A stretch of DNA of 33,332 bases, taken from assembly GCA_964347155.1 (NCBI GenBank), contig CAYFXR010000149.1, forward strand, positions 1-33,332. The letters run 5' to 3'. The DNA is from an uncultured Nitrospiraceae bacterium (GTDB lineage: Bacteria > Nitrospirota > Thermodesulfovibrionia > UBA6902). The position numbers and the translations under genes were made by a program. Position 1 is the first letter of the stretch. The number at the start of each line of letters is the position of its first letter. Shown piece after piece: positions 2,062 through 22,754 of the stretch. The notes beneath the pieces were generated by a model. That model worked only from the letters and a program-made list of their open reading frames with translations, was not told where the DNA came from and did no database searches.

Positions 2062-2243
2062 TTAACCCAAATAATGCAGACATTGCTCAATAAATTATTT
2101 AACTCGATAAATTTATTATTAAATTGTGCATATGGCTTTGAATAAACGTATTTACACTCGATCAATTAATATTGCGTTTAAGGTATCGAAAAATAATTTC
2201 TTTCACAAAGCCTGCATTATGTGAAATGCATTTTTGGGGTTAA
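2062..2243 (+). mobile_element. MITE-like element, sub-family 1, full copy (copy A)
   Basis: TIRs: TTAACCCAAATAATGCAGAC ... GCCTGCATTATGTGAAATGCATTTTTGGGGTTAA. Copies at 31743-31925 (+) and 11813-11995 (-) are >90% identical. Confidence 0.7.
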
Positions 2244-2366
2244 CGTTTTTTTGATAAAAAGATAAACAATGTATAACAAGACAATAAAAGAGTATCTATA
2301 AATTATGAAGAATACTGGCAGGGAATATAAGGAAGGAATTAATTAGTAATGGCTGGTAAGATTCGG

Positions 2367-3014
2367 TTACTTTTTACTTTTTATCTTTTCAAGCAGATCG
2401 CTTGCAAAGTCTTTATCTGATTTTTTTAAGACATTATATTCTTTTCTTGCTAAGTCTAATGACTTTTTACTTAATTCGACATAGGCAACACCAAGGTGAT
2501 AGCGGGCTTCTGCAAATGTGGGCTTAATCTTTACAGCTTTTTTATATGATTCAATAGCTTTTTCATATCTTTCCAGCTCGCTGTATATGTTACCGAGCGT
2601 AAAATACGCATTTGCATCTCTCGGTTTAAGTGTAACGGCTTTTTGAAGTGCTTTAATTGCTTCATCATTCTTGCCAAGCATGGAAGAGAGCATACCAAGT
2701 GAGTAGAGAGCATCTCCATATTTGGGATTTATTTTAACGGCGTTCTTATACGCATCATGTGCTTCTGAATACCTGTGAATGTTGAAGTATGCGTTACCAA
2801 GATGATGGTATGCCTCGGCATAATCGGGTTTTAGTTCAATGGCATGTTGAAAAGCGTCGATAGCTTCTGAATATTCTGTATTTTCACTGTTCTGGACACC
2901 GATATCAAAAAACGTCTCAGCAGAGGGTTCCTGGGCATAGAGGTCCATTGACAGAAAAGCAATTGACAGTGCTACAAGCGTTATTACTTTATAATAGTTC
3001 GATTTGAAAATCAT
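2367..3014 (-). CDS. TPR-repeat protein with N-terminal signal peptide
   Basis: Repeated 34-aa TPR units (AxxYxxLGxxYxxxxxYxxAxxxYxKA). The hydrophobic signal begins at the Met at 3014 (the ORF track extends it to 3062). Confidence 0.8.
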   Translation of the reverse strand: MIFKSNYYKVITLVALSIAFLSMDLYAQEPSAETFFDIGVQNSENTEYSEAIDAFQHAIELKPDYAEAYHHLGNAYFNIHRYSEAHDAYKNAVKINPKYGDALYSLGMLSSMLGKNDEAIKALQKAVTLKPRDANAYFTLGNIYSELERYEKAIESYKKAVKIKPTFAEARYHLGVAYVELSKKSLDLARKEYNVLKKSDKDFASDLLEKIKSKK

Positions 3015-3087
3015 AACTACCCATTTTATCAAAAAATATTTTTTTTTGTAAATAGGTGACAAAATGATAACAGGATGAAATCAATTT

Positions 3088-4092
3088 TTACCCGCCTATT
3101 TTAGACATAGCTTTTATATAGCTGGATAAAGTTATATTCTCATTGAGCAGATGCCTCTGAGGTTTTACTTTTACTGCATAGCAAAAAAGCTCGTCAATCT
3201 CGTTCTCAGTGGCTCCACTCCTCATCGGGGTTTTTATATCAACTGTTAAATCTGAAAAAAGACACGGCCTTATCTTCCCGTTGGCAGTAAGCCGGAGCCT
3301 GTTGCAATAGTTGCAGAAATGATCACTTAACGGACTGATAATTCCGATAACCCCCTTTGCCCCTTCAATCCTGAAATTTCTTGAAGGGCCTCTGCCTTTA
3401 AATTCAAGACGTTTAAGGTTGCCGAGAAATGATATTTTTTCCAGAACTTCTTCTGAACTTATGCATTTGTCTTTTGACCACATTCCGCTACACATTGCAG
3501 GCATGAACTCGATAAATCTTATGTGATATGGGTGGTTTAGAGTAAGCGATGCAAATGACCGTATCTCATCATCATTAAGACCACGTATGGGCACAACATT
3601 TATTTTTACCGGGGAGAGACCGATTTTTTCCGCCTCTCTTATGGATTTCCAGACACGATCAATATCGCCTCCATCGGTTATTTTCCTGTACCTGTCAGAA
3701 TCAAGGGTGTCGAGGCTTATGTTTACGCGGTCGAGACCGGCCCGTTTCAACATCCTGGCGAGTTTTGACAGTATAATTCCATTAGTAGTAAGGCTTAAAT
3801 CATATATGCCTATGTCTTTGATCGATGAAATCAGCTCAATGATATTCTTTCTCAGGAGAGGCTCACCACCGGTAATGCGGACTTTTCTTAAGCCTTGTTT
3901 GTAGGCAATGCGTACAAACCGCACGATCTCTTTATCTGTTAATATATCGGGTTCCTTGAAGTATCTCGGCCTCTTTGAAGGCATGCAGTAAATGCATTTA
4001 AGATTGCATTTATCCGTTATGGATATTCGGAGGTAATCTATACGGCGGTCAAAGGAATCTTTGAGAGGATATGTTTTATTTGACTGCTTCAT
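3088..4092 (-). CDS. moaA: GTP 3',8-cyclase MoaA (radical SAM, molybdenum cofactor biosynthesis)
   Basis: CNLKCIYCMP radical-SAM motif, a YLRISITDKCN N-terminus and C-terminal CxxCxxxxxxxxxxxxxC. The likely start is the ATG at 4092 (the ORF track starts at TTG 4110). Confidence 0.9.
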   Translation of the reverse strand: MKQSNKTYPLKDSFDRRIDYLRISITDKCNLKCIYCMPSKRPRYFKEPDILTDKEIVRFVRIAYKQGLRKVRITGGEPLLRKNIIELISSIKDIGIYDLSLTTNGIILSKLARMLKRAGLDRVNISLDTLDSDRYRKITDGGDIDRVWKSIREAEKIGLSPVKINVVPIRGLNDDEIRSFASLTLNHPYHIRFIEFMPAMCSGMWSKDKCISSEEVLEKISFLGNLKRLEFKGRGPSRNFRIEGAKGVIGIISPLSDHFCNYCNRLRLTANGKIRPCLFSDLTVDIKTPMRSGATENEIDELFCYAVKVKPQRHLLNENITLSSYIKAMSKIGG

Positions 4093-4176
4093 ATGCTGTT
4101 TTATTAACAACGCTTCATGTAAATTCGTTTTAACAGTTCCAGCCGTTCCAAATGTTCCAACGGATGGAACTGCTCA

Positions 4177-4201
4177 AACGGTTCAAACTGTTTGAACCGT
4201 T
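4177..4201. promoter_or_regulatory. Perfect 12-1-12 palindrome AACGGTTCAAAC-T-GTTTGAACCGTT between the moeA-like stop and moaA start
   Basis: Seen directly. Overlaps the stop codon of the upstream minus-strand gene. Related GTTCCAACGG/GGAAC half-sites lie at 4141-4170. Confidence 0.45.
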
Positions 4202-5306
4202 ATTTTCCAAACGGACAAACCGGAAAACGGCATTGATCACATTTTAAACACAGCCCTCCATGTCCGAGTTCCGCGATTTCCTTTCTACCTATCCTTTCAC
4301 CTGCAAGAACCCTTGGAAGTACTAGGTCAAATACGGTTATACTGGCGTACATGCCGCAGGCTGGTATACCAAGAATCGGGATGAGTTCAGAGTTTCGAGA
4401 AGTGAGATCCGAACTGTTAATTTTTAGATATGCTATAAGAAACATGGATCCGGGCTGAACAGGAGATCCATAATACATTTCTTCGACACCAAGATTTCTG
4501 ATCGCGAACCTTGTAACGTCATCAGGGTCAACAGACATGCCGCCTGTTGTGATAATAAGGTCTGCTCCCGTATCTATCAACTCTCTGATTCTTTCTTCGA
4601 TAAATTGAGCATCGTCAGGAGCAAAGTATACCCCGATGATTTTTCCATCTAGATGTTCTATTTTTTTTCTTATTACAGGCTCAAAGGCGTCCTTTATTTT
4701 TCCATGGTAGACTTCATTCCCTGTTATTACTACCCCTGTCTTGGGCTTTTTTATTTTTTTTACGCTTAAGACACCTCCTGCATCTACGGCTATTCTGACC
4801 GAATCCTCGACAATAGATTTTTTAACTACCAGAGGGATAGCCCTTGTTCCGGCAACAAGCTGTCCTTCTTTAACAATAGAGTTGTTATGAATCGTTGCGC
4901 ACGTAACCTCGCCGAGCAGATTGAATTCAAGGAGAGCTTTACGTTCTATTTTCAACAATCCATCTTTTTCAGCAACGAGATTTATTTTGCCTTCGTTCGG
5001 GTCTCCAGCCATTTTTACACCATCACCTGCAAGGGCCTTAGCAATTGCATATGCCGCATCGTTTTCATGCATCTCGTCTTCTTTCATCTCGAGGATAAAA
5101 AGATTTTCCTTCCCAAGTCTCTGGAGATGTTCAATATCCTTTTCTTGTATGATATGCCCTTTTTTAAACGCCCTGCCTTTGAATTCACCGGGTCTTATTT
5201 CGGTTATGTCATGTGACAATACCATTCCTACGGCTTCAGTTACGGGGACTGCCTTTGCACTGATACTTTTACTTTTATTGGTATCCATTTCTGTGATTTC
5301 ACACAT
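4200..5306 (-). CDS. MoeA/MogA-family molybdopterin-binding (MoCF biosynthesis domain) protein with C-terminal Cys cluster
   Basis: KTGVVITGNEV...TTGGMSVDPDDVT matches the MoCF_biosynth fold. The N-terminus is MoeA-like. C-terminal CLKCDQCRFPVCP. Adjacent to moaA. Confidence 0.6.
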   Translation of the reverse strand: MCEITEMDTNKSKSISAKAVPVTEAVGMVLSHDITEIRPGEFKGRAFKKGHIIQEKDIEHLQRLGKENLFILEMKEDEMHENDAAYAIAKALAGDGVKMAGDPNEGKINLVAEKDGLLKIERKALLEFNLLGEVTCATIHNNSIVKEGQLVAGTRAIPLVVKKSIVEDSVRIAVDAGGVLSVKKIKKPKTGVVITGNEVYHGKIKDAFEPVIRKKIEHLDGKIIGVYFAPDDAQFIEERIRELIDTGADLIITTGGMSVDPDDVTRFAIRNLGVEEMYYGSPVQPGSMFLIAYLKINSSDLTSRNSELIPILGIPACGMYASITVFDLVLPRVLAGERIGRKEIAELGHGGLCLKCDQCRFPVCPFGK

Positions 5307-5363
5307 GATTCCTCCATAGTTAGGTTTCCAGACTTGTACTATAATAAAGCTATCGTATCTCTT

Positions 5364-6122
5364 TTAAAACTTGATAACTTTTCTGGTTAAGAAAATAATT
5401 GCGACTATGATTACCGCCCCCAATATTTTTTCCATAGATTTTGGGGAAAATTTAAATGAACCCATAAATGAACCAACTGTCCCTCCGGCTAAAACTGCTG
5501 CTATAAGTGGAATGTAATTTGTTAAATCGATCGAATTGTATTGAAGACGGGATAGCAACCCAAAGCAGGAATTAAGCCAAATGAAAATAGCTCCACAGGC
5601 AGCGGCTTCTTTTTCAGTGCCTAACCCTAAGATTATTATTAAAGGGACAAGGTAAATACCGCCGCCAATTCCGACTATTCCTGCAAACAGACCAAGTACT
5701 GAACCGGCAATTAATGAGATGATTATTTTTCCATTTTGATTAATGTTCAGTTTGATAGTTGTGTTTTCCCAAGCGTATATTCGTAATGCCACAAAAACCA
5801 AAGATATTAATAGCATCCAGTAGAATATTTCTTTTGGTAGTCTAAGCGACCCCCCCAAATACGCCATAGGGATTGAAGATAGCAAAAAGGGCACAATAAG
5901 CTTTATCCTGGCATGCTTGTTTCGAATAAAGTTAACGCTTCCAACTGACGTAACAAATAAATTCAGTGACAATGAAATCATGGGTATTGCCAGTGAACTT
6001 ATCCCAAAGATAGCCATCAATGCAGTATAGGAGGAACCGCCACCGAGCCCCACGGAAGAATAAGTGAATGCCACAAGAAAAAATAAAAATGCTAAAACGT
6101 ATGGTGATCCAATTATTTCCAA
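5364..6122 (-). CDS. TSUP (TauE/SafE) family anion permease
   Basis: 252 aa, ~8 TM segments, duplicated G-x-G-G-G motifs (GLGGGSSY / GIGGGIYLVP). Confidence 0.8.
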   Translation of the reverse strand: MEIIGSPYVLAFLFFLVAFTYSSVGLGGGSSYTALMAIFGISSLAIPMISLSLNLFVTSVGSVNFIRNKHARIKLIVPFLLSSIPMAYLGGSLRLPKEIFYWMLLISLVFVALRIYAWENTTIKLNINQNGKIIISLIAGSVLGLFAGIVGIGGGIYLVPLIIILGLGTEKEAAACGAIFIWLNSCFGLLSRLQYNSIDLTNYIPLIAAVLAGGTVGSFMGSFKFSPKSMEKILGAVIIVAIIFLTRKVIKF

Positions 6123-6259
6123 AAGGCATGCCTCCTTACATGAGCTGTCAGATTTAAGCTATTAGCCATAAGCTAAAAAATTATGAGCTTAACGCTTATA
6201 GCCAAAAGCTGTCGTCGTAGCATCGTTGCATAACGCACCCAAAAAATTAAATTAAAAAA

Positions 6260-6601
6260 TCAACTTCTCCCGTTGCCAAATACTTCGATGAATTTCTTAT
6301 CGAGCATCTCATTCACGCCTTCTTCAAGTAGTTCATATTTCCTTAAAAATGTTTTTGCCTCTTTTGTTAATAATGCCCCGCCGCCGTGAAGCCCCCCGGC
6401 TCTTCTTTCCACAAGTCTTGTTCCGAGCCTTTGTTCCATTGTCTGTATATAACTCAGAGCCTTTCTGAATGATATATTGATGTCTTTTGCTGCCTTATTA
6501 ATTGACCCCAATTTATCAATAGCCTTCAGTAAAGCCTCCCTGCCTCTGCCGAAAACAGGTTCGCCATCAACCTCAAGCCAGATCTTTGAGCGAATCTGCA
6601 T
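6260..6601 (-). CDS. ModE-like N-terminal winged-helix regulator (molybdate-responsive regulator HTH domain only, no Mop domains)
   Basis: 113 aa. FGRGREALLKAIDKLGSINKAAKDINISFRKALSYI is the ModE N-domain signature. It lacks the C-terminal di-Mop domains of full-length ModE. Confidence 0.7.
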   Translation of the reverse strand: MQIRSKIWLEVDGEPVFGRGREALLKAIDKLGSINKAAKDINISFRKALSYIQTMEQRLGTRLVERRAGGLHGGGALLTKEAKTFLRKYELLEEGVNEMLDKKFIEVFGNGRS

Positions 6602-6712
6602 AGTATCGTTATAACATATTTGTCACAACGGTGTAAAGAAAAAAATGTCAAAATGCAATTATCGGAGGCATAGATAACTTCGAAATATTTAAAAATGCAA
6701 CATGATTACCAG

Positions 6713-6781
6713 ATGCCATTTTGCAATCGATAAAAATTTTTTACATACATTTATACTGTTATGATTGCAAAATGGCATGTT
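6713..6781. promoter_or_regulatory. 15-bp inverted repeat TGCCATTTTGCAATC ...37 nt... GATTGCAAAATGGCA upstream of the modE-like gene
   Basis: Seen directly. Located in the 285-bp gap between the fmdE-like and modE-like genes. Confidence 0.4.
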
Positions 6782-6886
6782 TAAAGGAGTTGCTTTTAAA
6801 GCTTTTTTCAGGTATCTATGCCTGTTATTTGCATAGGGAAATGACGTAAAAGAACAAAGAAACTGCGGAAATGTGGGACTGCTGTA

Positions 6887-7489
6887 CTATGGCGATTTAT
6901 AATAGGATCCCTGGGCACAGGCTTTACAGAAAAGTCTGCCGTTTACATTGACATCCCTCTTGTCCTGGACGTATTCACCACATTTTTCGCATTTAATTCT
7001 CCGAACGGGCCTTCCGGGCATATCCTCTTCAGGTACTTCAACGCTTACATTTGTCCATTCGAATAATTCGTTATCAGGCATGATCTTATAAGCTTCAAGC
7101 TGGCATTTATATTTATCTTCAATATCTGGAAAATAATTTTTTGCCTTGTCTTTGGATTCCTCTTTCGCAAGAATTCTTACCGCTTTTCCTGTTTTCAGAT
7201 TTGCATAAGTAGCTGCCATCTTTCCGAAATCAAGAAATTTTAACGACCTTTTACCCAGGCTGCAGCCGGTAACGGACTGTATTGCATCGGTAGCGCACCG
7301 GTCTATTTCAACATACACAATGAGCTTCTTTCTATCCTGCCCCTTTGGATCATTTATCCCTATCAACTCAAGTCCTAAAATGCTCATCCTTACACCAAGG
7401 ACCTGTCCAGGGCAAAGATGTCCATGTGTTTTTACTGATTCCTCGAGGAGTCTCTCAAAACCGAGTTTATCTAACATCTCATATTCCAT
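6887..7489 (-). CDS. FmdE/FwdE-domain protein with C-terminal zinc ribbon
   Basis: HGHLCPGQVLGVRM motif characteristic of the FmdE family. C-terminal CEKCGEY...CKAC. Confidence 0.75.
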   Translation of the reverse strand: MEYEMLDKLGFERLLEESVKTHGHLCPGQVLGVRMSILGLELIGINDPKGQDRKKLIVYVEIDRCATDAIQSVTGCSLGKRSLKFLDFGKMAATYANLKTGKAVRILAKEESKDKAKNYFPDIEDKYKCQLEAYKIMPDNELFEWTNVSVEVPEEDMPGRPVRRIKCEKCGEYVQDKRDVNVNGRLFCKACAQGSYYKSP

Positions 7490-7899: not shown

Positions 7900-8754
7900 A
7901 TGTTTAAACTCAGTATATTCCTTATAGCATTTCTAATACTTTTCATTAGTACAAATATATCATATGCTAAGGAAAAGGAGATTATCTTTGCCATTTCGCC
8001 AATGGCATCTCCTGTTTCCACTCTCTCTTATTACAATGATTTTATAAGATATCTTTCTAAAAAGACAGGTCTAATGATCATTCCTAAACAGAGGAGAACC
8101 TACGCTGAGATTAACTCCCTTTTAAAGAAGGGCGAAGCAGAGTTCGCCTATACGTGCACCGGGGCTTACATAAGAGGCAATTTTGACTTCGGACTTGAAC
8201 TCCTTGCCGTGCCAGTCATAAATGGCAAGACAAGCTATCATTCATACATAATTGTAAACAAAGAAAGCAAGATCGAGATCTTCTCCGGGCTTCGAGGAAG
8301 GGTCTTTGCCTTTACAGACCCGCTCTCATTGACAGGGAGACTGTACATCATACATCTCCTTGATACAATGGGTCTCATACCGGAGGAATTTTTTGAAAAG
8401 ACTTTTTACACATCAAGTCATGAAAAATCAATACAATCTGTGGCAAATGGACTTGCAGATGGGGCGGCAGTTGACAGTCTTATTTTTGACGATATGAAGA
8501 GAAAACATGCCCCGTCCACAAGCAATGTAAGAATTATAAAGATTTCACCGCCTTACGGCATACCTCCGGTTGTGGCGTCTCCTGTTGCGGAAAAATCAAC
8601 CAAGCAGCTTATATTAAAGACCCTTATTAAGATGGCAGAGGATACAACCGGAAGGGAGATTCTCCAGGGAATCCATATTGAAAAATTTATTATTCCTGAC
8701 CCTGCTATTTATAAGACTGCGGCAGAAGTGAGGGAGGCAACATTTCTACGGTGA
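7900..8754 (+). CDS. PhnD/SsuA-family periplasmic solute-binding protein (sensor-associated, AioX/ArxX-like)
   Basis: Signal peptide. PhnD-like fold motifs. Single mature Cys in FAYTCTGAY. A strong SD (AGAGGGGAA) precedes the ATG. Overlaps the kinase start (GTGA). Confidence 0.8.
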   Translation: MFKLSIFLIAFLILFISTNISYAKEKEIIFAISPMASPVSTLSYYNDFIRYLSKKTGLMIIPKQRRTYAEINSLLKKGEAEFAYTCTGAYIRGNFDFGLELLAVPVINGKTSYHSYIIVNKESKIEIFSGLRGRVFAFTDPLSLTGRLYIIHLLDTMGLIPEEFFEKTFYTSSHEKSIQSVANGLADGAAVDSLIFDDMKRKHAPSTSNVRIIKISPPYGIPPVVASPVAEKSTKQLILKTLIKMAEDTTGREILQGIHIEKFIIPDPAIYKTAAEVREATFLR

Positions 8755-10175
8755 GATTAGGAAAAATCTACAACAGCATAGCATTTCGCATCTCTATCTC
8801 CATTGCCGTTGTAGTGGCTGCTACAACGATGGGTGTGAGTTGGCTGCTGCTGAGAGAAGAAAGAAAAACACTGGAACTTGAACTTCGTAGCAAGGGAATG
8901 TACCTTGCAAATACAATGTCCCACCATATCATCGAACCATTCCTTTATGAGGAACGGCATGAAATATTCTCTCTTCTCAAAGCATCTATGATTGACGAAG
9001 AGAGTCTTGTGGTGCATGCCGAGGTCTATGACAAGAATAGAGAATTGATTGTTACAGCAGACAAGGATGAAAAGTGGCAAACAATAAAGTTTCAGCCGCT
9101 TAACTTTGAAGATTCACTAGAGGATATTATTATCGAGGAAGACAATATCTTGCCAATTTATCATATATCTTTACCTCTTAAAGTAGAAGCACTTGGAACT
9201 ATTGGATTTATCAGGCTGTGCATAACAAAAGAATACCTTTATAAGACCCTTGGAAATGTAAAACAGAAGCTTTATCTTCTGTCAGCAGCCGTTATCTTTA
9301 TCGGCATAATGCTGGGACTCTGGATGGCAAGAAAAATTTTAAGACCAATACTTATTCTTAATAAAGGGGTAAAAATGGTTGGTGAAGGAGGGCCGGGTGT
9401 TGAGATACCTGTAGTTGGAGAGGGCGAGATAAAAGAGCTGGCACTTTCTTTTAACAGAATGTCCGAGAAATTGAAAGAACAGATTGAGGTGATAAAGACC
9501 GCTCAGGAAAATCTTATAAGGACAGAGAAACTCTATGCCGTTGGAGAATTCTCTGCAGGAATTGCACATGAAATAAAGAACCCTCTTACATCCATCAAAA
9601 TGCTTATGCAGACTACACGATACAAAAAAAAGGCACTGTCCGACAGAGATTTTGAGATTATTGAGGGAGAGATAAACAGGATAGATCGTATCGTAAAAGA
9701 GTTTCTTGCTTTTGCAAGACCTGAAAAGATTGAAAAGACAGATATAAGTATAAATGATGTCCTTGAAGAAGTTATTACATTGACCGAGCCAAAGATGAAA
9801 CAAACTACCATACAACTTGAACAGATGTTTTCTCCCAACCTGCCGATGATCAAGGGAAATCTTGATGGTCTCAAACAGGTTTTTCTCAATATTGTTCTTA
9901 ATGCCTTACAAGCAATGAATGGTGGTGGCACACTGGGTATAGAGACATCAAAGAATAAAGATATGCTGTCAGTTGTAATAAGAGACACCGGCGCTGGGAT
10001 TCCAAAACAGGATTTAAAAAGAATTTTTGACCCTTTCTTTACAACAAAAGAGGAAGGAACCGGTATGGGACTGGCTCTAACGTATAAAATAGTGAATGAC
10101 CACTCTGGCAAGATTGATATAGATTCGACTACATCCGGTACAACGGTAAAAGTGGATTTGCCCTTACCCGAATAA
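8751..10175 (+). CDS. Sensor histidine kinase (2 TM, periplasmic domain, HAMP, HisKA, HATPase_c)
   Basis: HEIKNPLTSI H-box and N/G1/G2 boxes (DTGAGIP, GTGMGLAL). GTG start overlaps the upstream stop. Confidence 0.85.
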   Translation: MRLGKIYNSIAFRISISIAVVVAATTMGVSWLLLREERKTLELELRSKGMYLANTMSHHIIEPFLYEERHEIFSLLKASMIDEESLVVHAEVYDKNRELIVTADKDEKWQTIKFQPLNFEDSLEDIIIEEDNILPIYHISLPLKVEALGTIGFIRLCITKEYLYKTLGNVKQKLYLLSAAVIFIGIMLGLWMARKILRPILILNKGVKMVGEGGPGVEIPVVGEGEIKELALSFNRMSEKLKEQIEVIKTAQENLIRTEKLYAVGEFSAGIAHEIKNPLTSIKMLMQTTRYKKKALSDRDFEIIEGEINRIDRIVKEFLAFARPEKIEKTDISINDVLEEVITLTEPKMKQTTIQLEQMFSPNLPMIKGNLDGLKQVFLNIVLNALQAMNGGGTLGIETSKNKDMLSVVIRDTGAGIPKQDLKRIFDPFFTTKEEGTGMGLALTYKIVNDHSGKIDIDSTTSGTTVKVDLPLPE

Positions 10176-10343
10176 TGCAGACATTGTAATAAAATTTATT
10201 TAATTCGATGGATTTATTATTAAATTATGCATATAGCTTGGAACAAACATATTCACCTTTGATTGGCTGGAATTGCGTCAAAGGTATCGAGAAATAGATT
10301 TTCTTCCAACGCCTGCATTATGTGAAATGCATTTTTTGGGTTT
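10164..10343 (+). mobile_element. MITE-like element, sub-family 2 (copy C), wedged exactly between kinase and sigma54-regulator genes
   Basis: Left TIR TTACCCGAATAATGCAGAC encodes the kinase's last codons L-P-E-stop. Right end ...AAATGCATTTTTTGGGTTT immediately precedes ATG 10344. Confidence 0.7.
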
Positions 10344-11750
10344 ATGAATACACTTCTTATTATAGATGACGAAAAAGCAGTGAGATACTCCTTTAAAAGG
10401 ATGTTTGAAGATGAATACAGGGTTTTAACTGCTGAGGACGGTGTATCGGCTCTGAATATTCTCGATACCAGCTATATTGGTGTTGACGTCATTTTCCTTG
10501 ATGTCAGAATGCCTGGCATGGGGGGGATAGAGGTGCTTAAAAAGATTAAGGAGATAACAAAGAACATTCCTGTTGTAGTAATGACGGCATTTGGCGATTC
10601 TGATACTGCTATTGAAGCTATGAAAGAAGGGGCGTTTGATTACCTTACAAAGCCTTTAGAGGGTAACCAGCTAAAAGATGTTATTGAAAAGGCGCTTGCA
10701 TCGGCACGGCTTCAGCAAGATGCTTCCTGTTGTGGAACGATAGAAGAACTCTCGGATAAGGAAGAGACAATTGTGGGAAAAACTCAGTCAATTCTTGATG
10801 TTTGTAAGATGATCGGTCAGGTTGCAAACACAGATGTGCCTGTGCTCGTAACAGGAGAAAGTGGTGTAGGAAAGGAGTTAGTGGCACGGGCAATATACAA
10901 CCACGGTAGTAGAAAAGGTAGACCTTTTATGGCTGTTAATTGTGCTGCACTTCTTGAGGGTGTGGTAGAGAACGAATTATTTGGTTCAGAGAAAGGGGCA
11001 TTCACGGGCGCTGACAAGAGGAGAATAGGAAGGTTCGAACAGTGTGACGGGGGTACTATCTTCCTTGATGAGATCGGAGATATGAGTATTCCAACTCAAG
11101 CTAAATTACTCAGGGTACTCCAGGATGGTAGCTTCGAGCGTATCGGAAGCAATGAGACAATAAAGACAAATGTGCGTATCATTGCTGCCAGTAATAAAAG
11201 TCTCCACGACGAGGTAAGGAACGGCAGGTTCAGAGAAGACCTGTTTCACAGACTCAATGTTTTTTCCATACACATTCCTGCGCTCAGAGAAAGAATGGAA
11301 GATATTCCGTTGCTCTCAGATTACTTCCTCTCAAGGGCGGTCAGGGATACGGATAAAAAGATCACGGGATTTTCACATGACGTAATTAAACGTTTTATGT
11401 CATATAACTGGCCGGGCAATGTGAGAGAGCTTGAAAATACCATAAAACGGGCTGTGGTAATTACTACTGGAGAGGTTCTTGGTGTGAATGATGTTATTTT
11501 AAATGCTGAGTCATGTACAAAAGAGTTTCAAGAGCTTTCTGTGGTAATTGACGGTTTATTTGAAAGGACGATTAACACGCAAGCCCCTTCAGACAGTTAT
11601 CACTCTATCCTCTCACGTGTGGAAAAATGTCTTATTGAAAAGGCACTAAATGTAACAAAGGGGAATCAGGTACAGGCATCTGCACTACTCGGTATTACAA
11701 GAGTCACATTAAGAAAAAAGATGCAAGAGTTCAAAATCCCGTCTGTATAG
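10344..11750 (+). CDS. Sigma-54-dependent response regulator (REC + AAA+ sigma54-activator + Fis-type HTH), NtrC/AioR-like
   Basis: Receiver Asp (FLDVRMPGMGG), Walker A GESGVGKE, GAFTGA motif, C-terminal HTH. Confidence 0.9.
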   Translation: MNTLLIIDDEKAVRYSFKRMFEDEYRVLTAEDGVSALNILDTSYIGVDVIFLDVRMPGMGGIEVLKKIKEITKNIPVVVMTAFGDSDTAIEAMKEGAFDYLTKPLEGNQLKDVIEKALASARLQQDASCCGTIEELSDKEETIVGKTQSILDVCKMIGQVANTDVPVLVTGESGVGKELVARAIYNHGSRKGRPFMAVNCAALLEGVVENELFGSEKGAFTGADKRRIGRFEQCDGGTIFLDEIGDMSIPTQAKLLRVLQDGSFERIGSNETIKTNVRIIAASNKSLHDEVRNGRFREDLFHRLNVFSIHIPALRERMEDIPLLSDYFLSRAVRDTDKKITGFSHDVIKRFMSYNWPGNVRELENTIKRAVVITTGEVLGVNDVILNAESCTKEFQELSVVIDGLFERTINTQAPSDSYHSILSRVEKCLIEKALNVTKGNQVQASALLGITRVTLRKKMQEFKIPSV

Positions 11751-13626: not shown

Positions 13627-14541
13627 ATGTATAGAGAAAACCGAAAGATGAGAAAGCTGAACCGAAGAGAATTTATAAGGCTGACAGCTGTTGGCGGGAC
13701 CGGCATTCTCCTGCCCCAACCGCTAAGGGTGCTTGATGACGCGTTTGACCAAATTATCGGGACTACACAGCAGAATAGCAAGATCGAATATGTACCGAAG
13801 CCGGTCACTGGGGTCAGATTCGGGATGGTTATAGACCTCGGAAAGTGCATTGGTTGCAGGCGGTGCATGTATGCCTGTAAACGGGAAAACAATGTGCCTG
13901 ACACCATTTCCCCTCCTTATATCATGGTGTTTGAAACCGAATCAGCTACGGGCGTAACAGGCCACTTCCCTTCACCGGAAATTCCGTGGAAGGGCACAAC
14001 AATGTATTACACCAGACTCCGGAAAGATAAGTGGTATATGCCAGTACAGTGTAACCATTGCGATCATGCTCCGTGTGTGAAAGTTTGTCCTACCGGAGCG
14101 TCATATAAAGATCCTGATGGTCTTGTATTGATAGATTATGAAAAATGTATAGGATGCCGGTATTGTATGACTGCATGTCCGTACAACGCCCGAAGATTCA
14201 ATTGGTGGGAGCCGGAGATACCTCATGACCGTATAAATCCCCTAGTGCCCTTACGCAGACACGGCATTGTAGAGAAATGCACCTTCTGCGTACACCGTAC
14301 AAGAAGGGGTAAATTCACACGTTGTGTGGAAGTATGCCCGAACAAGGCAAGAACCTTCGGAAATTTCAATGACCCTGACAGCAGGGTTTCCAAATTGGTT
14401 GAAACCGAAAGGAACTTCCGACTAAAGGAAGGACTTAATACAGAGCCACGTATATGGTATCTCACAAGACCCAAAGAAAAGCGCATGAGGTGGTATCGTC
14501 CCCTGCCTCCGTCTGAAAATATCAGAGGTGTCAGGTCATGA
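13627..14541 (+). CDS. TAT-exported 4x[4Fe-4S] ferredoxin subunit (NrfC/PsrB/DmsB-like)
   Basis: Twin-arginine motif NRREFIRL. Four Cys clusters (CIGCRRCMYAC; CNHCDHAPCVKVCP; CIGCRYCMTACP; CTFC...CVEVCP). The alternative start at 13648 is equally possible. Confidence 0.85.
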   Translation: MYRENRKMRKLNRREFIRLTAVGGTGILLPQPLRVLDDAFDQIIGTTQQNSKIEYVPKPVTGVRFGMVIDLGKCIGCRRCMYACKRENNVPDTISPPYIMVFETESATGVTGHFPSPEIPWKGTTMYYTRLRKDKWYMPVQCNHCDHAPCVKVCPTGASYKDPDGLVLIDYEKCIGCRYCMTACPYNARRFNWWEPEIPHDRINPLVPLRRHGIVEKCTFCVHRTRRGKFTRCVEVCPNKARTFGNFNDPDSRVSKLVETERNFRLKEGLNTEPRIWYLTRPKEKRMRWYRPLPPSENIRGVRS

Positions 14542-15716
14542 AAGATGTAAGCAGATCCTTTCACATCTTTGTTGTCGTATTGCTGGTCGTGATAGGCCTG
14601 GGCAGCTTCAACTGGCTTCGTTTCTTAACACATGGCCCCGGACTTACCGGTTCAAGTGATGCGGTGCCATGGGGAATATACATAACCGGGCTGGCATACT
14701 TTATAGGATTAAGTGCAGGCGCAACAATCGTCGGATTATTGATACACGGGTTTGGCCGTAATGACTACAAACCAATAGGGATACGCGCAATTCTTCTCGC
14801 GCTCCTCTGTATCTTCGGAGCCACACAATTTGTCCTGGTAGACCTGGGTGTTCCTTTTAGGGGATTGAAGGTGCCTCTCGTACTTCACAACCTGACGTCA
14901 CTCTTCCTTATCTCCTCGTCAAGCTATTACGGATTTATGACCATATTGGGAGGAGAACTCTACTTCTCAATAAAAGTGGCGAAAGGGAAAGCAAGCCACC
15001 GGGATGAAACAATAGCAAAATGGCTTGGAATTCTTGCGGTTCCGTATGCCCTCTGGGTAGTTCATGCCTTCACTGGATCAATCTTTGGTGTAGTAAAAGC
15101 AAGGGAAATGTGGAATACCCCCATGCTGCCGGTACATTTCGTGATATCAGCCATTGCAAGCGGATTTGCCATGGTGATATTGGTAGGAATAATAACATCG
15201 AAAATAGAAAAAAGAGAGCTCCTGAGCAGTGGAACTTATGACCACATGGGTAAACTGCTGGCCTTCTTTGTGGTAGTAACCCTGTTCCTTGACTTCTTTG
15301 ACTATTTTATTCTTCGATACAGCGCAAAAGCAGAGGCAATGGAAACATGGCATATTCTGACGGGCAGATATGCCCCTGTATTGGCAATGAATATCGGTGG
15401 ATTGGCTTCTGCGTTTTTGATACTGATCTTCAGAAAGGGGAGAACCGTCAATGGAATGTTTATTGCTACGATCCTGGTACAGCTGGCAATCATAGCATAT
15501 CGTATTAATCTGGTATCAGTAGGACAGTTAGTCCCTTTATTCCCGGGTATGGGTGAAATATACTACAGCCCGACATTTTCAGAGATATCAGTGGCGTTGG
15601 CTTTAGTGGCGCTTGTAATACTCCTTTATGCGGTGCTGTCCAGGATAATGCCTATGGAAGAAACAGTTCAGGAACTTGTACAGCAGCCGGTACAACGCAG
15701 CTGGAGGCATAGATAA
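14538..15716 (+). CDS. NrfD/PsrC-family polytopic membrane quinol-interacting subunit
   Basis: 392 aa, ~9-10 TM helices. ATGA overlap with the upstream FeS gene, typical for PsrBC/NrfCD pairs. Confidence 0.85.
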   Translation: MKDVSRSFHIFVVVLLVVIGLGSFNWLRFLTHGPGLTGSSDAVPWGIYITGLAYFIGLSAGATIVGLLIHGFGRNDYKPIGIRAILLALLCIFGATQFVLVDLGVPFRGLKVPLVLHNLTSLFLISSSSYYGFMTILGGELYFSIKVAKGKASHRDETIAKWLGILAVPYALWVVHAFTGSIFGVVKAREMWNTPMLPVHFVISAIASGFAMVILVGIITSKIEKRELLSSGTYDHMGKLLAFFVVVTLFLDFFDYFILRYSAKAEAMETWHILTGRYAPVLAMNIGGLASAFLILIFRKGRTVNGMFIATILVQLAIIAYRINLVSVGQLVPLFPGMGEIYYSPTFSEISVALALVALVILLYAVLSRIMPMEETVQELVQQPVQRSWRHR

Positions 15717-15752
15717 TTATTCATTAAGAAGCAAAAAGGAAAATTGAACTAG

Positions 15753-17219
15753 TTGATAGGCGGAGGTGAAAAATTGGACAAACAATCACGTGTAGATGTT
15801 CCAAATAGATATATTCAAAATAGATCCAGAAAAACAAAAAATGACTTTTCATATTATTGGGGTATTTGGTTTATCTTAGGCATTCTCCTTATATATATAC
15901 TGATAAAAATCGTCACCTATGCGCCACATACGGAAGAAGAAAAATGGATACCGGAACCTGCCAGGATTACTATCCCCGGCAGTCCCGATTATGTTGGTTC
16001 AGAGAGGTGCAGGGATTGCCACTGGAAGGAATACGATACCTGGAAGAATACATTACATTCCAAGTTTATGCAACTCCCGAATGAATACACGATCATAGGT
16101 GACTTTGAGAAAAATAACAAGTTGACTGTTAAAGTCACGAGTAAGGTGCCCGGGCTATCAAACAGACTGGTTACCAGCACAATGTATAAGAAGAACGGTG
16201 GTTTCTACGTGAACACCATTGGTCCTCATTTGAAGTACAACAATTATGAAATCACTCACGTCATCGGCATCGGAAGGAGACAGACATATATCACTACGTT
16301 CTCAAACGGTGAAATGCATGTCCTTCCAGTCGAGTGGGACGTCGAGAAGAAGACGTGGGTTGACAACAACGGCTTAAAAAACCACTACCCTGGAGATGGT
16401 GAATACTGGAGCGATAAGGGCAGTATCTGGCAATACAGGTGCGGTGGCTGCCACGTTACCGGCATGAAGATAAATTATGATGAAACAAGAGATTTCTTTG
16501 ACACCGACTGGGTAGACACCGGCATTGCATGTGAGGCATGCCATGGACCGGGTAGTAATCATGTCCAGGCTGCAAGTATGTTCTTTGAGGGCGAGAAGGA
16601 CACAATCATTAATCCGGCAAAGTTGCCGTGGCGGCTTCGTGCCATGATATGTGGCCAGTGCCACAACTGGGGATTAAGCACTACTGCAATTTCCCCAAAC
16701 AAGGAAGGCTTCCCGAAACAATTCAGCTACCCGTATGGTTATCAGGCTGGAAAAGCACTCTATCTCTACTATGTAGAGGAGCGTAAAAAGGAGAAGATAC
16801 ACCACCAGCAATACAATGAGTGGCAGCAGAGCGAGCACGCAAAAACAGGCGTTATGTGCACGAATTGTCACAATGTCCATCAAGAAGAAGATATAAAAAT
16901 TGCCATGACAAAGCTTACCCCGGACAGCTTATGTATGGATTGCCACAAGACATTGCAAAGAAGGGCAGCGCACAGAATTCATACATTCGGAAGCTGTGTT
17001 GCCTGTCACATGCCGAAGACAATAGGGCATGAACACAGTCATACATTTAAATTTATTTCGCCTGAGCTGAGCATAAGGGCGGGAGGCATTGAAAAACAAC
17101 CTAATTCCTGTAGCGGCTGTCATCACCACAAAGAGACGCCATTAGTGAATCTTGTTGAATTCCTTGATGCCGCCAAAAAAAGAGATATGCCGAAACCATT
17201 TTCAGCACACAGGAGGTAA
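15753..17219 (+). CDS. Membrane-anchored octaheme cytochrome c
   Basis: Eight CxxCH motifs (CRDCH, CGGCH, CEACH, CGQCH, CTNCH, CMDCH, CVACH, CSGCH). N-terminal TM anchor. No ATG before the anchor, so a TTG start (15753 or 15774) is assumed. Confidence 0.8.
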   Translation: MIGGGEKLDKQSRVDVPNRYIQNRSRKTKNDFSYYWGIWFILGILLIYILIKIVTYAPHTEEEKWIPEPARITIPGSPDYVGSERCRDCHWKEYDTWKNTLHSKFMQLPNEYTIIGDFEKNNKLTVKVTSKVPGLSNRLVTSTMYKKNGGFYVNTIGPHLKYNNYEITHVIGIGRRQTYITTFSNGEMHVLPVEWDVEKKTWVDNNGLKNHYPGDGEYWSDKGSIWQYRCGGCHVTGMKINYDETRDFFDTDWVDTGIACEACHGPGSNHVQAASMFFEGEKDTIINPAKLPWRLRAMICGQCHNWGLSTTAISPNKEGFPKQFSYPYGYQAGKALYLYYVEERKKEKIHHQQYNEWQQSEHAKTGVMCTNCHNVHQEEDIKIAMTKLTPDSLCMDCHKTLQRRAAHRIHTFGSCVACHMPKTIGHEHSHTFKFISPELSIRAGGIEKQPNSCSGCHHHKETPLVNLVEFLDAAKKRDMPKPFSAHRR

Positions 17220-17279
17220 CGTATTTAGGTTTTCTTGCTGCAAGATCTATGAACAAAGGAGGGAACTGAACAATAGGCC

Positions 17280-18851
17280 ATGAAAAGAGTTCTTTTATAC
17301 GTAATAACTGCCCTGATAGTCATGACAAATATTCATTATTCATATGCTGCAGAGGAATCATCCGCGGAGTTGCCTTATGTAAGACCCCAGTTTTTCTGTG
17401 GCGCCTGTCATGTCCTTACTTATCCTAAGGTAATAAAAAAGGCGCATACGTCATGGCAGGCTGGTAAACATAAAGATGTCCCCTGTGTAGATTGCCATTA
17501 TCCTCCTGAAAAACTCGATGTCAGAATCCCCGAACATGAAAAAATTCCAAGAGATGAAGAGACTGCATCAGGCAAGAAGACGGCTCTGGAGTTTATGAAG
17601 ACCGAGCTGGAAGTCTTATCAAGGCTGATAACAATATTGAATATGGAAGAGTCAGTGATAAGGACAAAGCCAAGAATTGACGACAGGAGTTGTAAGCAAT
17701 CCAAATGCCATCCGCCAACCGGCATTGGCAGGGAAGGAGAGTTCTGGACTAAAAAAATCAATTTCTTTGAGTATGAAAGAGAGGATAAATCAAAAGGCGT
17801 TATCCCGTATGTTCATGAAAAACATTTTGATAAGGAGAAATGGATAGAAGGTCAGGAGATGCACTGTACAACCTGTCATCAACATGAGACTAGTCAGAAA
17901 CATTTTGAAGTCTCCCGGAAGAAGTGCTTTCTCTGCCACTTTAAGAATGTCAAATTAAATGAAGAACGGGCAAAATGCTCACTATGTCACGAGATTCCCA
18001 CAAAACCTCTTCAGAGACAAAAGAAAGAAGGAGCAGACCCTGATGAAAAACCTATTACTCATCAATCGATTGAAGAGGCAAAGGTACAGTGCGAGAGCTG
18101 CCATCTCCACTTTATAAAAGGTAACGGTACGGTAAGGAAGGAAAAGTGTCTTAATTGTCATGAAAATGAAGAATCAACTATTAAGGAGGTGCTTAATAAA
18201 AAACGTATGCATGAAGAACATGTAGCAGGACAGAATGCCGGTTGTTTTAGTTGCCATGAGACTATTGAGCATAATAAACAGGGAGATTTTATAGATATTG
18301 CAAGGGAAAACTGCCAGGCATGCCATCCTGATCATCATAAGTACCAGAAGATGCTTTTACTTGGAGAAAAGAGGAAAGGAGTATCACATATCCCGGGCCT
18401 CATGTTTGCTGTGAATACGAACTGCCTCGCATGTCATCTTGAAGAAAGACTTATTAATGGAGAGAAAGTTGTGCATGGCTCGGGAAAGGCGTGTGCTGCT
18501 TGCCATACTGAAAAACATGAAGGCATGGTAAAGGAGTGGAAGGACAAGGCAGGGGAAGAGTTAAAGAATGCCCAGGAGATCGGCAAAGAGGCTTCAAATG
18601 CTATTGAAGAAGCAAAGGGCAAGGTGAGGGAGGAGATATTAAAAGAAGCATTGGCAATGGTAAAAGAGGGTCAGGAGAATTTAAAGATTGTTGAATACGG
18701 AGGGGGGGTTCACAATAAGAAATACTCTATAATGCTTCTTGACGTGGCCATGTCCAACTTTGAGGATGCCATAGATTTGCTTAGTGAAGATGAGGACGAA
18801 GAGGAAGGCGAAGAAGACGAAGAATACGATGAAGATGAGGATGATGAATGA
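17280..18851 (+). CDS. Dodecaheme cytochrome c (11 CxxCH + 1 CX4CH) with N-terminal anchor and poly-acidic C-terminal tail
   Basis: Motifs counted directly, including the non-canonical CKQSKCH. Final 27 aa are almost entirely D/E. SD AAGGAGGGA upstream. Confidence 0.85.
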   Translation: MKRVLLYVITALIVMTNIHYSYAAEESSAELPYVRPQFFCGACHVLTYPKVIKKAHTSWQAGKHKDVPCVDCHYPPEKLDVRIPEHEKIPRDEETASGKKTALEFMKTELEVLSRLITILNMEESVIRTKPRIDDRSCKQSKCHPPTGIGREGEFWTKKINFFEYEREDKSKGVIPYVHEKHFDKEKWIEGQEMHCTTCHQHETSQKHFEVSRKKCFLCHFKNVKLNEERAKCSLCHEIPTKPLQRQKKEGADPDEKPITHQSIEEAKVQCESCHLHFIKGNGTVRKEKCLNCHENEESTIKEVLNKKRMHEEHVAGQNAGCFSCHETIEHNKQGDFIDIARENCQACHPDHHKYQKMLLLGEKRKGVSHIPGLMFAVNTNCLACHLEERLINGEKVVHGSGKACAACHTEKHEGMVKEWKDKAGEELKNAQEIGKEASNAIEEAKGKVREEILKEALAMVKEGQENLKIVEYGGGVHNKKYSIMLLDVAMSNFEDAIDLLSEDEDEEEGEEDEEYDEDEDDE

Positions 18852-18983
18852 TTTTATGCTCTGTCCTATGATTGAAATATAGTAACTACTCATGTCTCTT
18901 CCTTTGGAATTTGAAAAAAAGGGAGGATTATAGGGGTGAGTTGCTACAAATATAACACAATTGATCGAAAAAAGGAGGTAACC

Positions 18984-19856
18984 ATGAGTAAGATAAATAC
19001 TGTAACTGTATCCCGCCGCGATGTGCTCAAGACAGGCAGCGCTGTTGTTGCGGCTGCTGCTACAACAACAGGCCTTGTGCCAGATGTAGCAGAGGCTGCA
19101 AAAAAGAAAAAGAAAAAACTTGCCCGCTGGGCTATGGTAGTTGACCTCAGGAGATGCATTGGCTGCAGGGGATGCTGCATTGCAGACAAGGCAGAATATG
19201 GAGCTGCACTCGGAAGGTATAACACGGTTGTCAAGAATGTAGAGTACGGCAAATATCCTGCTCCCCAAAAGCATTTCCTTCCTCGTCTGTGTAACCACTG
19301 TGCAGGCGACCCATCAAAAGAATGGCAGGTCCCGCCATGTGTTGAGGTATGTCCCGAAGCAAAAAGCGGAGAGAGGAAGAAAATGGGGAATGAAAGATAC
19401 AGGACAGGCGCTACGTATAAGCGACCTGACGGGATGATTTTGATAGATCCCAACCTCTGTATCGGCTGTTACAAATGTGTTGATGCATGTCCGTATGGAG
19501 TGCGCTCTCCTGACCCTAATGTAAAGCTTACCAGGCCTGACAGGGAAAAGGATATCGGAGTGGGTAAATGTACGTTCTGCCGGCATCGTGTCGATAAGGG
19601 AATTACGACTTCATGTACGAATACCTGTCAGGGCATGGCAAGGAATTTCGGTGATCTGAACGACAAAAAAAGCAAGGTCTATAAACTTGCCAAGGAATTT
19701 AAATTGCTCGAAAACAGGGACAAGTCAACCCTGCTTCCGGAAGAAAAGACTATGCCTCACGTATTTTATATAGACCCGGATGGTGTGTTAGCGCACTACA
19801 ATAAGAAAATTACAAAAGAGACAAAATTGCGGGAGTTTACATCCTGGTTTGAATAA
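18984..19856 (+). CDS. TAT-exported 4x[4Fe-4S] ferredoxin subunit partner of the molybdopterin enzyme (PsrB/ArrB/DmsB-like)
   Basis: SRRDVLK TAT motif after ATG 18984 (SD AAAGGAGG). Four Cys clusters. The ORF-track GTG 18936 extension is unlikely. Confidence 0.85.
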   Translation: MSKINTVTVSRRDVLKTGSAVVAAAATTTGLVPDVAEAAKKKKKKLARWAMVVDLRRCIGCRGCCIADKAEYGAALGRYNTVVKNVEYGKYPAPQKHFLPRLCNHCAGDPSKEWQVPPCVEVCPEAKSGERKKMGNERYRTGATYKRPDGMILIDPNLCIGCYKCVDACPYGVRSPDPNVKLTRPDREKDIGVGKCTFCRHRVDKGITTSCTNTCQGMARNFGDLNDKKSKVYKLAKEFKLLENRDKSTLLPEEKTMPHVFYIDPDGVLAHYNKKITKETKLREFTSWFE

Positions 19857-19889
19857 TGAATAACGAAAATACAGAAAGGAGGAAATAAA

Positions 19890-22373: not shown

Positions 22374-22462
22374 GATTACTCCAAACAATGGGCATTAAAG
22401 AGAAGGAGTTAAAGATTGTTATCAAAATATGCATACACGTCAGTGGAGGACAAATTTAACAA

Positions 22463-22746: not shown

Positions 22747-22754
22747 CTGAAGAA

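Follow-up and report, generated by a model that had tools for sequence, protein, structure and literature searches.

Gene content of the locus

The stretch of DNA analysed here (hereafter the window) comprises 33,332 nt from an uncultured Nitrospiraceae bacterium (GCA_964347155.1, contig CAYFXR010000149.1, positions 1-33,332 of the forward strand) and carries a group of genes related to the cofactor of molybdenum (Mo) and tungsten (W) enzymes. Five consecutive minus-strand genes encode an FmdE-like protein, a ModE homologue reduced to its N-terminal DNA-binding part (ModE-N), a permease of the TSUP/TauE family (TSUP), a protein with a MoCF_biosynth domain (MoCF) and MoaA (Table 1). These genes and an open reading frame (ORF) at 24510-25697 had been singled out in a first-pass annotation, made from the sequence alone, as a Mo/W homeostasis island; all six were recovered where that annotation placed them, their domains were confirmed by profile search, and the reading of the region as an island for the Mo/W cofactor, with an N-terminal-only ModE at its head, is supported. 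The limits originally drawn around the island (3088-7489) enclose five real genes but are too narrow, the functional unit reaching a TPR and an ArsC-like gene downstream and a divergent set of sensor/regulator genes upstream. The ORF list and profile searches show no ABC transporter gene in any part of the window, and the absence of modABC noted earlier thus holds for these 33 kb. A search of the window against Rfam gave no match to a molybdenum cofactor (Moco) riboswitch at the gathering threshold, and such an element in the ModE-N-to-TSUP spacer or elsewhere in the window was rejected on this result.

Table 1. Features of the window, by position
Feature	Position	Strand	Assignment and remarks
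LMWPc / thioredoxin-type ArsC-like protein	1480-1917	minus	PF01451; TIGR02691 156 bits, below cutoff (174)
TPR-repeat protein, hydrophobic N-terminus	2367-3062	minus	Pfam TPR families
MoaA, GTP 3',8-cyclase	3088-4110	minus	TIGR02666 362.6 bits (cutoff 284)
MoCF, 368-aa 'molybdopterin-binding protein'	4200-5306	minus	PF00994 MoCF_biosynth, residues 191-331 only
TSUP/TauE-family permease, 252 aa	5364-6122	minus	PF01925 90.6 bits (cutoff 32.6), residues 10-244; proposed molybdate/tungstate transporter cassette
ModE-type operator 2 (N11 variant)	6213-6235	minus	CGTTATGCAACGATGCTACGACG; upstream of TSUP; degenerate, 2 mismatches
ModE-N, 113-aa winged-helix regulator	6260-6601	minus	TIGR00637 85 bits (cutoff 98.5); HTH_1 34.9 bits (cutoff 26.6)
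ModE-type operator 1	6607-6630	minus	CGTTGTGACAAATATGTTATAACG; CGTTAT-N12-ATAACG, 1 mismatch
Predicted ModE-N promoter	-35 TTTACA 6632-6637; -10 TATAAC 6608-6613	minus	Read from sequence; operator 1 between and overlapping both boxes
66-bp hairpin element	6713-6778	minus	16-nt perfect inverted repeat arms, 34-nt loop
FmdE/FwdE-like protein, 200 aa	6887-7489	minus	PF02663 116.9 bits; C-terminal zf-dskA_traR
PhnD-like periplasmic binding protein, histidine kinase, sigma54-dependent response regulator	7900-11750	plus	Divergent from the island
Respiratory oxidoreductase operon of the Mo/W-bis(pyranopterin guanine dinucleotide) type	13627-23408	plus	Catalytic subunit of 827 aa, exported by twin-arginine translocation
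MOT1-family (SulP-related) permease, 395 aa	24510-25697	minus	PF16983 in two stretches, 172.7 bits

Two surveys were used for comparison. For TSUP, 80 loci were fetched via an alignment of the subfamily from a collection holding one genome per species, ORFs were called, and all genes within 6 kb were clustered without prior filter before the clusters were identified by Pfam. For ModE-N, a metagenome scan using an alignment of the regulator yielded 71 further loci. The promoter operator count covers 67 ModE-N loci, and the census of the following gene covers 55, those with a visible gene after ModE-N. Loci L082-L087 were found by looking up three relatives of the 368-aa MoCF protein.

An N-terminal-only ModE homologue and its predicted operators

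ModE-N falls below the cutoff of TIGR00637 and above that of HTH_1 (Table 1), and sequence searches relate it to Escherichia coli ModE (PDB 1b9m; E=5.7e-10 over residues 20-94) and to an N-only homologue of 135 aa (PDB 2ijl; E=1.5e-8). As first described, it consists of the helix-turn-helix part only, ending at residue 113, and Pfam and NCBIfam profiles match no Mop or TOBE domain in it; lacking the Mop domains, it has no means of binding molybdate as ModE does, but it may act as the DNA-binding half of ModE would.

Operator 1 is the sole match in the window with at most one mismatch and represents a predicted binding site, the half-sites and spacing of which agree with the consensus of E. coli ModE (ATCGCTATATA-N6-TATATAACGAT; PMC2700814). 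The palindrome occurs at the same position in L082-L087 (in L084 it reads CCGTTATGACAAATGTGTTATAACGG) and in L001, located on a second contig of the same assembly, and 61 of the 67 loci have it lying across the ModE-N promoter. Over the 1.4 Mb of fetched loci, 16 matches with at most one mismatch were counted versus ca. 7 in shuffled sequences, and 10 of the 16 are located at island promoters, including one upstream of FmdE-MoCF-TSUP in L014. The ATG of ModE-N, as read from the sequence, is only 6 nt past the predicted -10 box and has no Shine-Dalgarno sequence, so that the ModE-N transcript is probably leaderless.

A second operator, in the N11 variant, is situated between ModE-N and TSUP. 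It is found as a perfect copy (CGTTATGCAAAGATGCTATAACG) in the corresponding spacer of L082/L083 and with one or two mismatches in L093, L112 and L115, and it precedes TSUP in seven loci; the identical variant, again perfect, precedes a MOT1 gene in L109. A classical ModE core of the E. coli type (TATAT-AGCAAAA-TATAT, N7) was also seen in L006, a locus of the distant lineage Candidatus Desulfobia, at ca. 9915-9935 in the short stretch between divergent ModE-N and TSUP genes.

The inverted repeat TGCCATTTTGCAATC in the 6602-6886 spacer, which had been put forward as a target of ModE-N, is real and slightly longer than claimed, with arms at 6713-6728 and 6763-6778 that are 34 nt apart, unique in the window and predicted to fold as RNA at -23 kcal/mol (z = -3.8). 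It was nonetheless rejected as a ModE operator, being absent from all 22 sister FmdE-to-ModE-N spacers checked whereas the 6607-6630 palindrome is conserved; in L001 its position is taken by a run of N (scaffold gap). The hairpin is probably a lineage-specific insertion and may correspond to a small inserted repeat element. Just downstream of it, ca. 95 nt upstream of the ModE-N start codon, lies a sigma54-like -24/-12 element (TGGTAATCATGTTGCA; TGGTAA-N5-TTGCA, 6696-6711, minus strand), and a sigma54-dependent response regulator is encoded at 10344-11750. A sigma54 promoter fed by this neighbouring regulator was dropped as a general feature because the motif is not conserved in the 22 sister spacers.

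Two permease families alternate in the slot behind ModE-N

The consensus gene order of the sister islands is FmdE, ModE-N, a variable slot, MoCF, MoaA, and then a TPR, ArsC-like or M48 peptidase gene. Upstream there is often, as in the window, a divergent set of PhnD-like sensor, histidine kinase and sigma54 regulator genes, or cytochrome and iron-sulfur (FeS) genes of a Mo enzyme. L082/L083 are fully syntenic with the window (ModE-N-TSUP-MoCF-MoaA-TPR-ArsC-like-aminotransferase), and L084-L087 have the ModE-N-MoCF-MoaA island without TSUP. In the census of 55 sister loci, the slot is empty, with MoCF directly following ModE-N, in 39; it is filled by TSUP in 10, by a MOT1-family permease confirmed by PF16983 in 4 and by another gene in 2. 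The four slot MOT1 genes (L107, L109, L127 and L142) have two PF16983 repeats and no STAS domain. Where no spacer is present, TSUP (2-nt gap) or MOT1 (4-nt overlap) is translationally coupled to ModE-N.

The tree of ModE-N shows the slot states interleaved, TSUP turning up at four or more points and MOT1 at three or more, and L109, the nearest relative of the window ModE-N on that tree, holds MOT1 in the slot versus TSUP in the window. That two non-homologous permeases, one of which belongs to a family of molybdate uptake, share a single regulatory slot is the strongest argument for a TSUP substrate of the same type. As a separate observation, five loci (L116, L122, L143, L152 and L155) carry after MoaA a gene for an M48-family membrane peptidase (417-455 aa) that replaces the TPR and ArsC-like genes.

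The TSUP subfamily in Moco operons across phyla

The window TSUP gene starts with TTG and is preceded at 8 nt by AAGGAGG. Both halves of its 252-aa product contain the glycine-rich GxGGG…P motif, and residues G25, G28, G144, G148, G151, G153, G154 and P160 are invariant in 47 members of the subfamily. The latter is fairly small (180 clusters at 50% identity for E<1e-30, among 1.84 billion representatives), and a sequence search of solved structures with the TSUP profile gave no relatives.

A Moco or Mo-enzyme gene is located within 6 kb of TSUP in 45 of 79 loci (ca. 58%), which are distributed over at least eight phyla or classes, and in 28 of these 45 it directly adjoins TSUP on the same strand. 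The most recurrent neighbours in the unbiased clustering are MoCF-domain proteins (MoaC-MoaB fusions, MoeA and MoaB; 36 loci), MoaA (29), MoaE (27), MoaD (21), MoeB with its ThiF and rhodanese domains (13), cysteine desulfurase (11), XdhC (8) and xanthine-dehydrogenase-type enzymes (7). Gene order varies among Marinimicrobia, Bacteroidota, Bdellovibrionota, Hyphomonadaceae, Pelagibacterales, Chloroflexi, Psychrobacter and Desulfobacterota, and 4-nt overlaps are frequent. The order is MoaA-MoaCB-TSUP-MoeA-MoeB-MoaD-MoaE with 4-nt overlaps in Marinimicrobia, TSUP-MoaD-MoaE in Bacteroidota, MoeB-TSUP in Bdellovibrionota and Mo-oxidoreductase-FeS-TorD-ferredoxin-TSUP in several deltaproteobacteria, while in Hyphomonadaceae MoeA overlaps TSUP and a ModE-N gene lies alongside. 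An alternative conserved context was looked for in the 33-34 loci devoid of Mo neighbours and rejected: in a Pfam tally of 106 neighbours the families were scattered and unrelated, none of them connected with sulfur.

Comparative genomics gives strong support to a link of TSUP with Mo and backs the idea, already raised in the first-pass annotation, that TSUP may take part in molybdate or tungstate transport. The neighbourhoods found across phyla, the exchange of TSUP and MOT1 in one slot and the ModE-type operators speak for that role; transport itself is only inferred.

Other arrangements were noted in the course of the survey. In Marinimicrobia/Fidelibacterota (L035-L046, L052 and L057), each Moco operon has two permeases: TSUP is located between a MoaC-MoaB fusion and a MoCF gene the size of MoeA (ca. 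407 aa), and a DASS (Na_sulph_symp) permease follows MoaE and is itself followed by a universal stress protein. In six Pelagibacterales (SAR11) loci (L055, L067, L070, L074, L075 and L079), TSUP is divergent from a 166-aa MoCF gene of MoaB size and adjoins genes for a molybdoenzyme of the xanthine dehydrogenase family, XdhC and a DUF1244 protein. Finally, L001 (= L091), at 2234-3928 of the second contig of the window's own assembly, encodes an identical TSUP protein, with an additional FmdE copy that follows the MoCF gene at a 0-nt gap and a TatA gene before MoaA; the identical TSUP in an altered gene order points to a strain-level rearrangement of the island.

Cofactor-synthesis and FmdE-like proteins

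The earlier assignments of MoaA and the FmdE-like protein stand. MoaA, the enzyme of the first step of Moco synthesis, exceeds the cutoff of its equivalog model, matches PF04055 and PF06463 (Mob_synth_C) and has CNLKCIYC as its CxxxCxxC motif. The FmdE-like protein, besides its PF02663 match, shows the HGHxC metal-site motif as THGHLC (residues 21-26), a treble-clef zinc finger of the DksA/TraR type at residues 165-197 and similarity to PDB 2gvi (E=1.4e-12). Its gene is directly upstream of ModE-N in 17 sister loci. The metal-site motif, the zinc finger and a fusion of FmdE with PF00994 have been described (PMC2954224), and such fusions fit the tight pairing of FmdE and MoCF, which L001, L014 and L017 likewise show.

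The label 'MoeA-like' given to the 368-aa MoCF protein holds in part. Its relatives are annotated as 'molybdopterin-binding protein [Nitrospirae]' and, when aligned with it, display an invariant C-terminal motif, C-x2-C-x2-C-x4-C. The Pfam models of the MoeA N- and C-terminal domains have no match in it, and it remains below all MoeA models (28.5 bits versus 440 for NF007960 and 27.8 versus 560 for NF050098). With its AlphaFold2 model, which is of medium confidence (pLDDT 65.6), the top Foldseek matches in PDB were all Cnx1E, gephyrin-E or MoeA (E ca. 1e-9 over ca. 390 columns, TM ca. 0.3, ca. 14% identity). The most fitting description is that of a distant MoeA/Cnx1E-like putative Mo/W insertase. 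The protein shares PF00994 with MoeA, Cnx1E and gephyrin-E, which are also its best whole-length structural matches, at low TM, but it differs from them by the lack of a MoeA_N or MoeA_C match and by the additional four-Cys motif; what stands of the earlier label is a distant and tentative fold resemblance to Mo-insertases, not membership of any modelled MoeA family.

Neighbouring genes and the MOT1-like permease of the window

The TPR gene that follows MoaA in the window is found at this place also in L082/L083, L093, L101, L102, L105/L106, L134 and L148, and the ArsC-like gene is syntenic with the island in L082/L083, L093 and L134. On the other side, the divergent trio of PhnD-like protein, histidine kinase and response regulator likewise faces FmdE/ModE-N in L097, L114, L119, L152 and L161 and accompanies Mo-enzyme operons that include TSUP in L022 and L017; it probably senses the substrate of the Mo/W enzyme encoded next to it.

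The operon of this enzyme comprises two FeS subunits, an NrfD-like membrane subunit, two multihaem cytochromes, the catalytic subunit and a TorD-like chaperone. The catalytic subunit is best matched by PhsA/DmsA-type models while remaining below every equivalog cutoff (342 bits versus 694 for PhsA), and these scores place it in the DMSO reductase family as a PhsA/DmsA-like protein. The oxidoreductase is a likely client of the cofactor island. An arsenic link of the enzyme, considered in view of the AioXSR-like trio and the nearby ArsC-like gene, was unsupported, the ArrA and arsenite-oxidase models scoring far below cutoff. One of the two large multihaem cytochromes ends in a poly-acidic tail (DEDEEEGEEDEEYDEDEDDE). 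Farther along, 29236-31428 encodes a 730-aa protein in which a 2-hydroxyglutaryl-CoA-dehydratase D-component domain is fused to a BcrAD/BadFG activator ATPase domain; it has no relation to the island.

The permease encoded at 24510-25697 is a MOT1-family homologue, as first annotated: besides the two PF16983 stretches, both signature motifs can be read in its sequence (PIPVQPLK and MPMCHGAGGLAAHYRFGARTGG), as reportedly defined by Tejada-Jimenez et al. in 2007. Pfam matches no STAS domain in it, and a sequence search of solved structures with this protein gave no relatives. Its inclusion in Mo homeostasis was not sustained. The operator scan of the window detected no ModE-type box upstream of the gene, and three close relatives are located in an arsenic/mercury-resistance island, next to a DASS permease and in an unrelated context. 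Relatives go by the names 'putative sulfate/molybdate transporter', given by NCBI, or 'sulfate permease'. With the slot-type MOT1 genes the protein shares only 38% identity. Neither novelty nor Mo specificity can be claimed for it, and it lies outside the visible ModE-N regulon; its substrate is ambiguous, with sulfate, molybdate or another oxyanion as candidates. In L088, an LMWPc gene (8198-8596) directly follows a MOT1-like homologue in an ars/mer island, and a pairing of ArsC-like phosphatases/reductases with oxyanion permeases is recurrent.

Proposed function of the island and alternative explanations

Judged from these comparisons, the island is likely, though some way from certain, to be a self-regulated operon for Mo/W-cofactor supply, with TSUP as its likely molybdate/tungstate carrier and probably an importer. 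A sigma70-type promoter in front of ModE-N would be overlapped by the palindrome at 6607-6630, and ModE-N would bind this operator and so control its own transcript, which would run on into TSUP, the MoeA-like putative insertase, MoaA and probably the TPR protein. TSUP would be an optional cassette directly behind the regulator, the slot of sister islands being empty or holding MOT1 behind the same secondary operator. The permease would carry molybdate or tungstate over the cytoplasmic membrane, probably inward, and feed the insertase encoded next to it. The metal signal might reach the Mop-less ModE-N via a partner, possibly FmdE, and the island would supply the adjacent respiratory Mo/W oxidoreductase. 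Import is favoured because TSUP is co-expressed with biosynthesis genes, has a position equivalent to that of MOT1 and stands behind an importer-style operator.

Several points weigh against this proposal. Molybdate or tungstate transport by prokaryotic TSUP members is putative, and the Mo-responsiveness of the ModE-type operator is assumed, since ModE-N has no Mop domain. Those TSUP members that have been characterised act on sulfur oxyanions or sulfonates, the bacterial reports being on sulfite and sulfonates (PMC12227400, PMC3949148), and several Moco operons place TSUP beside MoaD, MoaE or MoeB-rhodanese, that is, at the sulfur-transfer step. The clade of the window TSUP (60-88% identity), which the tree shows to be made up of Desulfobacterota and sulfur-oxidising Gammaproteobacteria, occurs mostly stand-alone or in unrelated contexts, with sporadic Mo linkage. 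In one such case (L008, 8794-10753), a TSUP 84% identical to that of the window is found in the order ArsR-aquaglyceroporin-TSUP, which hints that some close relatives might have a broader role with metalloid oxyanions. In the Marinimicrobia operons, the DASS permease could be the Mo carrier instead. The operator proximal to TSUP is degenerate in the window itself, with two mismatches; the ModE-N tree was built on 114 columns and is poorly resolved; and the counts of Mo neighbourhoods come without a matched control of other TSUP subfamilies, their base rate being argued.

Extended beyond the window, the proposal becomes more tentative, and we give it somewhat less than even weight: the TSUP subfamily may be a widespread and unrecognised prokaryotic Mo/W uptake system, the equivalent of MOT1 and an alternative to ModABC, TupABC and WtpABC, which would be embedded in Moco operons of highly abundant marine bacteria (SAR11/Pelagibacterales, Marinimicrobia, Bacteroidota) and of sediment anaerobes, in the latter under a Mop-less ModE-N that would sense the metal via a partner, possibly FmdE.

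The first alternative, which we regard as unlikely, ties TSUP to Moco through sulfur, the permease exporting sulfite or moving thiosulfate or another sulfur compound while MoaD is loaded by MoeB-rhodanese and cysteine desulfurase. It would agree with the name of the family and with the sulfite and sulfonate reports cited above, which are the sole bacterial ones, with TSUP abutting MoaD, MoaE or MoeB-rhodanese in Bacteroidota and Bdellovibrionota, with the cysteine desulfurase nearby in 11 loci, and with the concentration of the window TSUP clade in sulfur-cycling bacteria. However, the islands of the window lineage contain no MoaD, MoaE or MoeB, and their TSUP follows a ModE-type regulator and operator and is swapped for MOT1 in sisters. 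Moreover, in Marinimicrobia and Hyphomonadaceae TSUP overlaps a 400-aa MoCF gene of MoeA size, which would correspond to the metal-insertion step, and the Mo-less TSUP loci show no sulfur-metabolism context.

Next in order of probability, and just as hard to favour, TSUP might be an efflux or detoxification valve for molybdate or tungstate, both of which are toxic to sulfate reducers, and protect a sulfate- or sulfur-metabolising anaerobe. Characterised TauE/SafE members have been proposed as exporters, and cytosolic efflux is favoured by the authors who described rice OsDISMO1, a TauE-family protein (PMC12227400); the separate MOT1-like permease could then be the importer of the window. Yet in many phyla TSUP is transcribed together with genes of cofactor biosynthesis and is often coupled to them in translation, it shares its slot with an uptake family, and a ModE-type box over the -10 is the classical arrangement for repressing importers when metal is replete. 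Its carriers also include aerobic marine heterotrophs such as Pelagibacter and Pontibacter, for which Mo toxicity is no issue.

That TSUP is an unrelated passenger, a generic anion permease inserted by chance and hitch-hiking in operons of several phyla, is very improbable: most close relatives are away from Mo genes, the slot is empty in most sister operons, and the high identity of the Desulfobacterota and Gammaproteobacteria copies suggests mobility, but Mo linkage extends over at least eight phyla or classes in differing gene orders with overlapping frames, a dedicated second operator precedes TSUP in seven loci and, in an identical variant, MOT1, and TSUP was acquired several times independently in the same slot.

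Relation to known systems and significance

Bacterial entry of Mo and W is known essentially through ModABC, TupABC and WtpABC, together with a few low-affinity oxyanion carriers, and among permease families that are poorly characterised TSUP is one of the largest. Only in 2025 was a first member linked to Mo described, in rice. Mutants of this gene, OsDISMO1, show an altered Mo distribution, and yeast expressing it gains Mo (PMC12227400). OsDISMO1 shares PF01925 with the window TSUP, a likeness known at family level only, and unlike the latter it is eukaryotic, probably endomembrane, of unsettled direction and outside any operon or regulator logic. In a full-text literature search of incomplete coverage, the paper on OsDISMO1 was the only match, and no link between TSUP and molybdenum in prokaryotes was found; such a permease goes unmentioned in the Moco-riboswitch paper, and a literature search for TunR returned nothing relevant. 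TauE, SafE and TsaS, bacterial TSUP proteins of characterised or proposed function, belong to the same family as the window TSUP and have the same glycine-rich motifs, but they sit with genes of sulfonate catabolism whereas the window subfamily sits with Moco genes and under ModE-type regulation.

The closest regulatory parallel is E. coli ModE-modABC, in which the DNA-binding domain is homologous, the half-sites have the form CG-TAT...ATA-CG with equal spacing, the operator overlaps the promoter and the regulator adjoins a Mo transporter gene. E. coli ModE, however, has Mop domains and is associated with an ABC transporter, whereas the window combines a Mop-less regulator with a single-polypeptide TSUP (MOT1 in some sisters), and here regulator and targets are in one operon with the biosynthesis genes. 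The same truncated architecture is seen in PDB 2ijl, an Agrobacterium protein of 135 aa named 'molybdenum-binding transcriptional repressor'; the literature search found no published function or regulon for N-terminal-only ModE homologues, and that of ModE-N is, in contrast to such homologues, defined together with its operator by comparative genomics. As to MOT1, the high-affinity molybdate transporters of Chlamydomonas and plants have PF16983 in two repeats and no STAS domain, as do the window and slot proteins, which differ in being bacterial and known from genes; the window copy further differs by its 'sulfate/molybdate' name and its relatives away from Mo genes.

The component families, namely TSUP, MOT1, the ModE DNA-binding domain, MoaA and FmdE, are already known. 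What appears to be new is the assignment of a TSUP subfamily to prokaryotic Mo/W cofactor metabolism, the interchangeability of TSUP and MOT1 in one regulatory slot and the definition, from comparative predictions, of an operator and regulon for N-terminal-only ModE proteins. This last point raises the question of how a metal is sensed by a ModE without its molybdate-binding domain. The TSUP hypothesis is directly testable, as some carriers are available in culture (Hyphomonas, Pontibacter, Psychrobacter) and complementation of E. coli mod mutants is standard. If it is true, it would provide a simple single-gene Mo/W importer for engineering and a function for thousands of genes annotated as 'sulfite exporter TauE/SafE', and it could explain how molybdoenzymes are supplied in streamlined marine bacteria.

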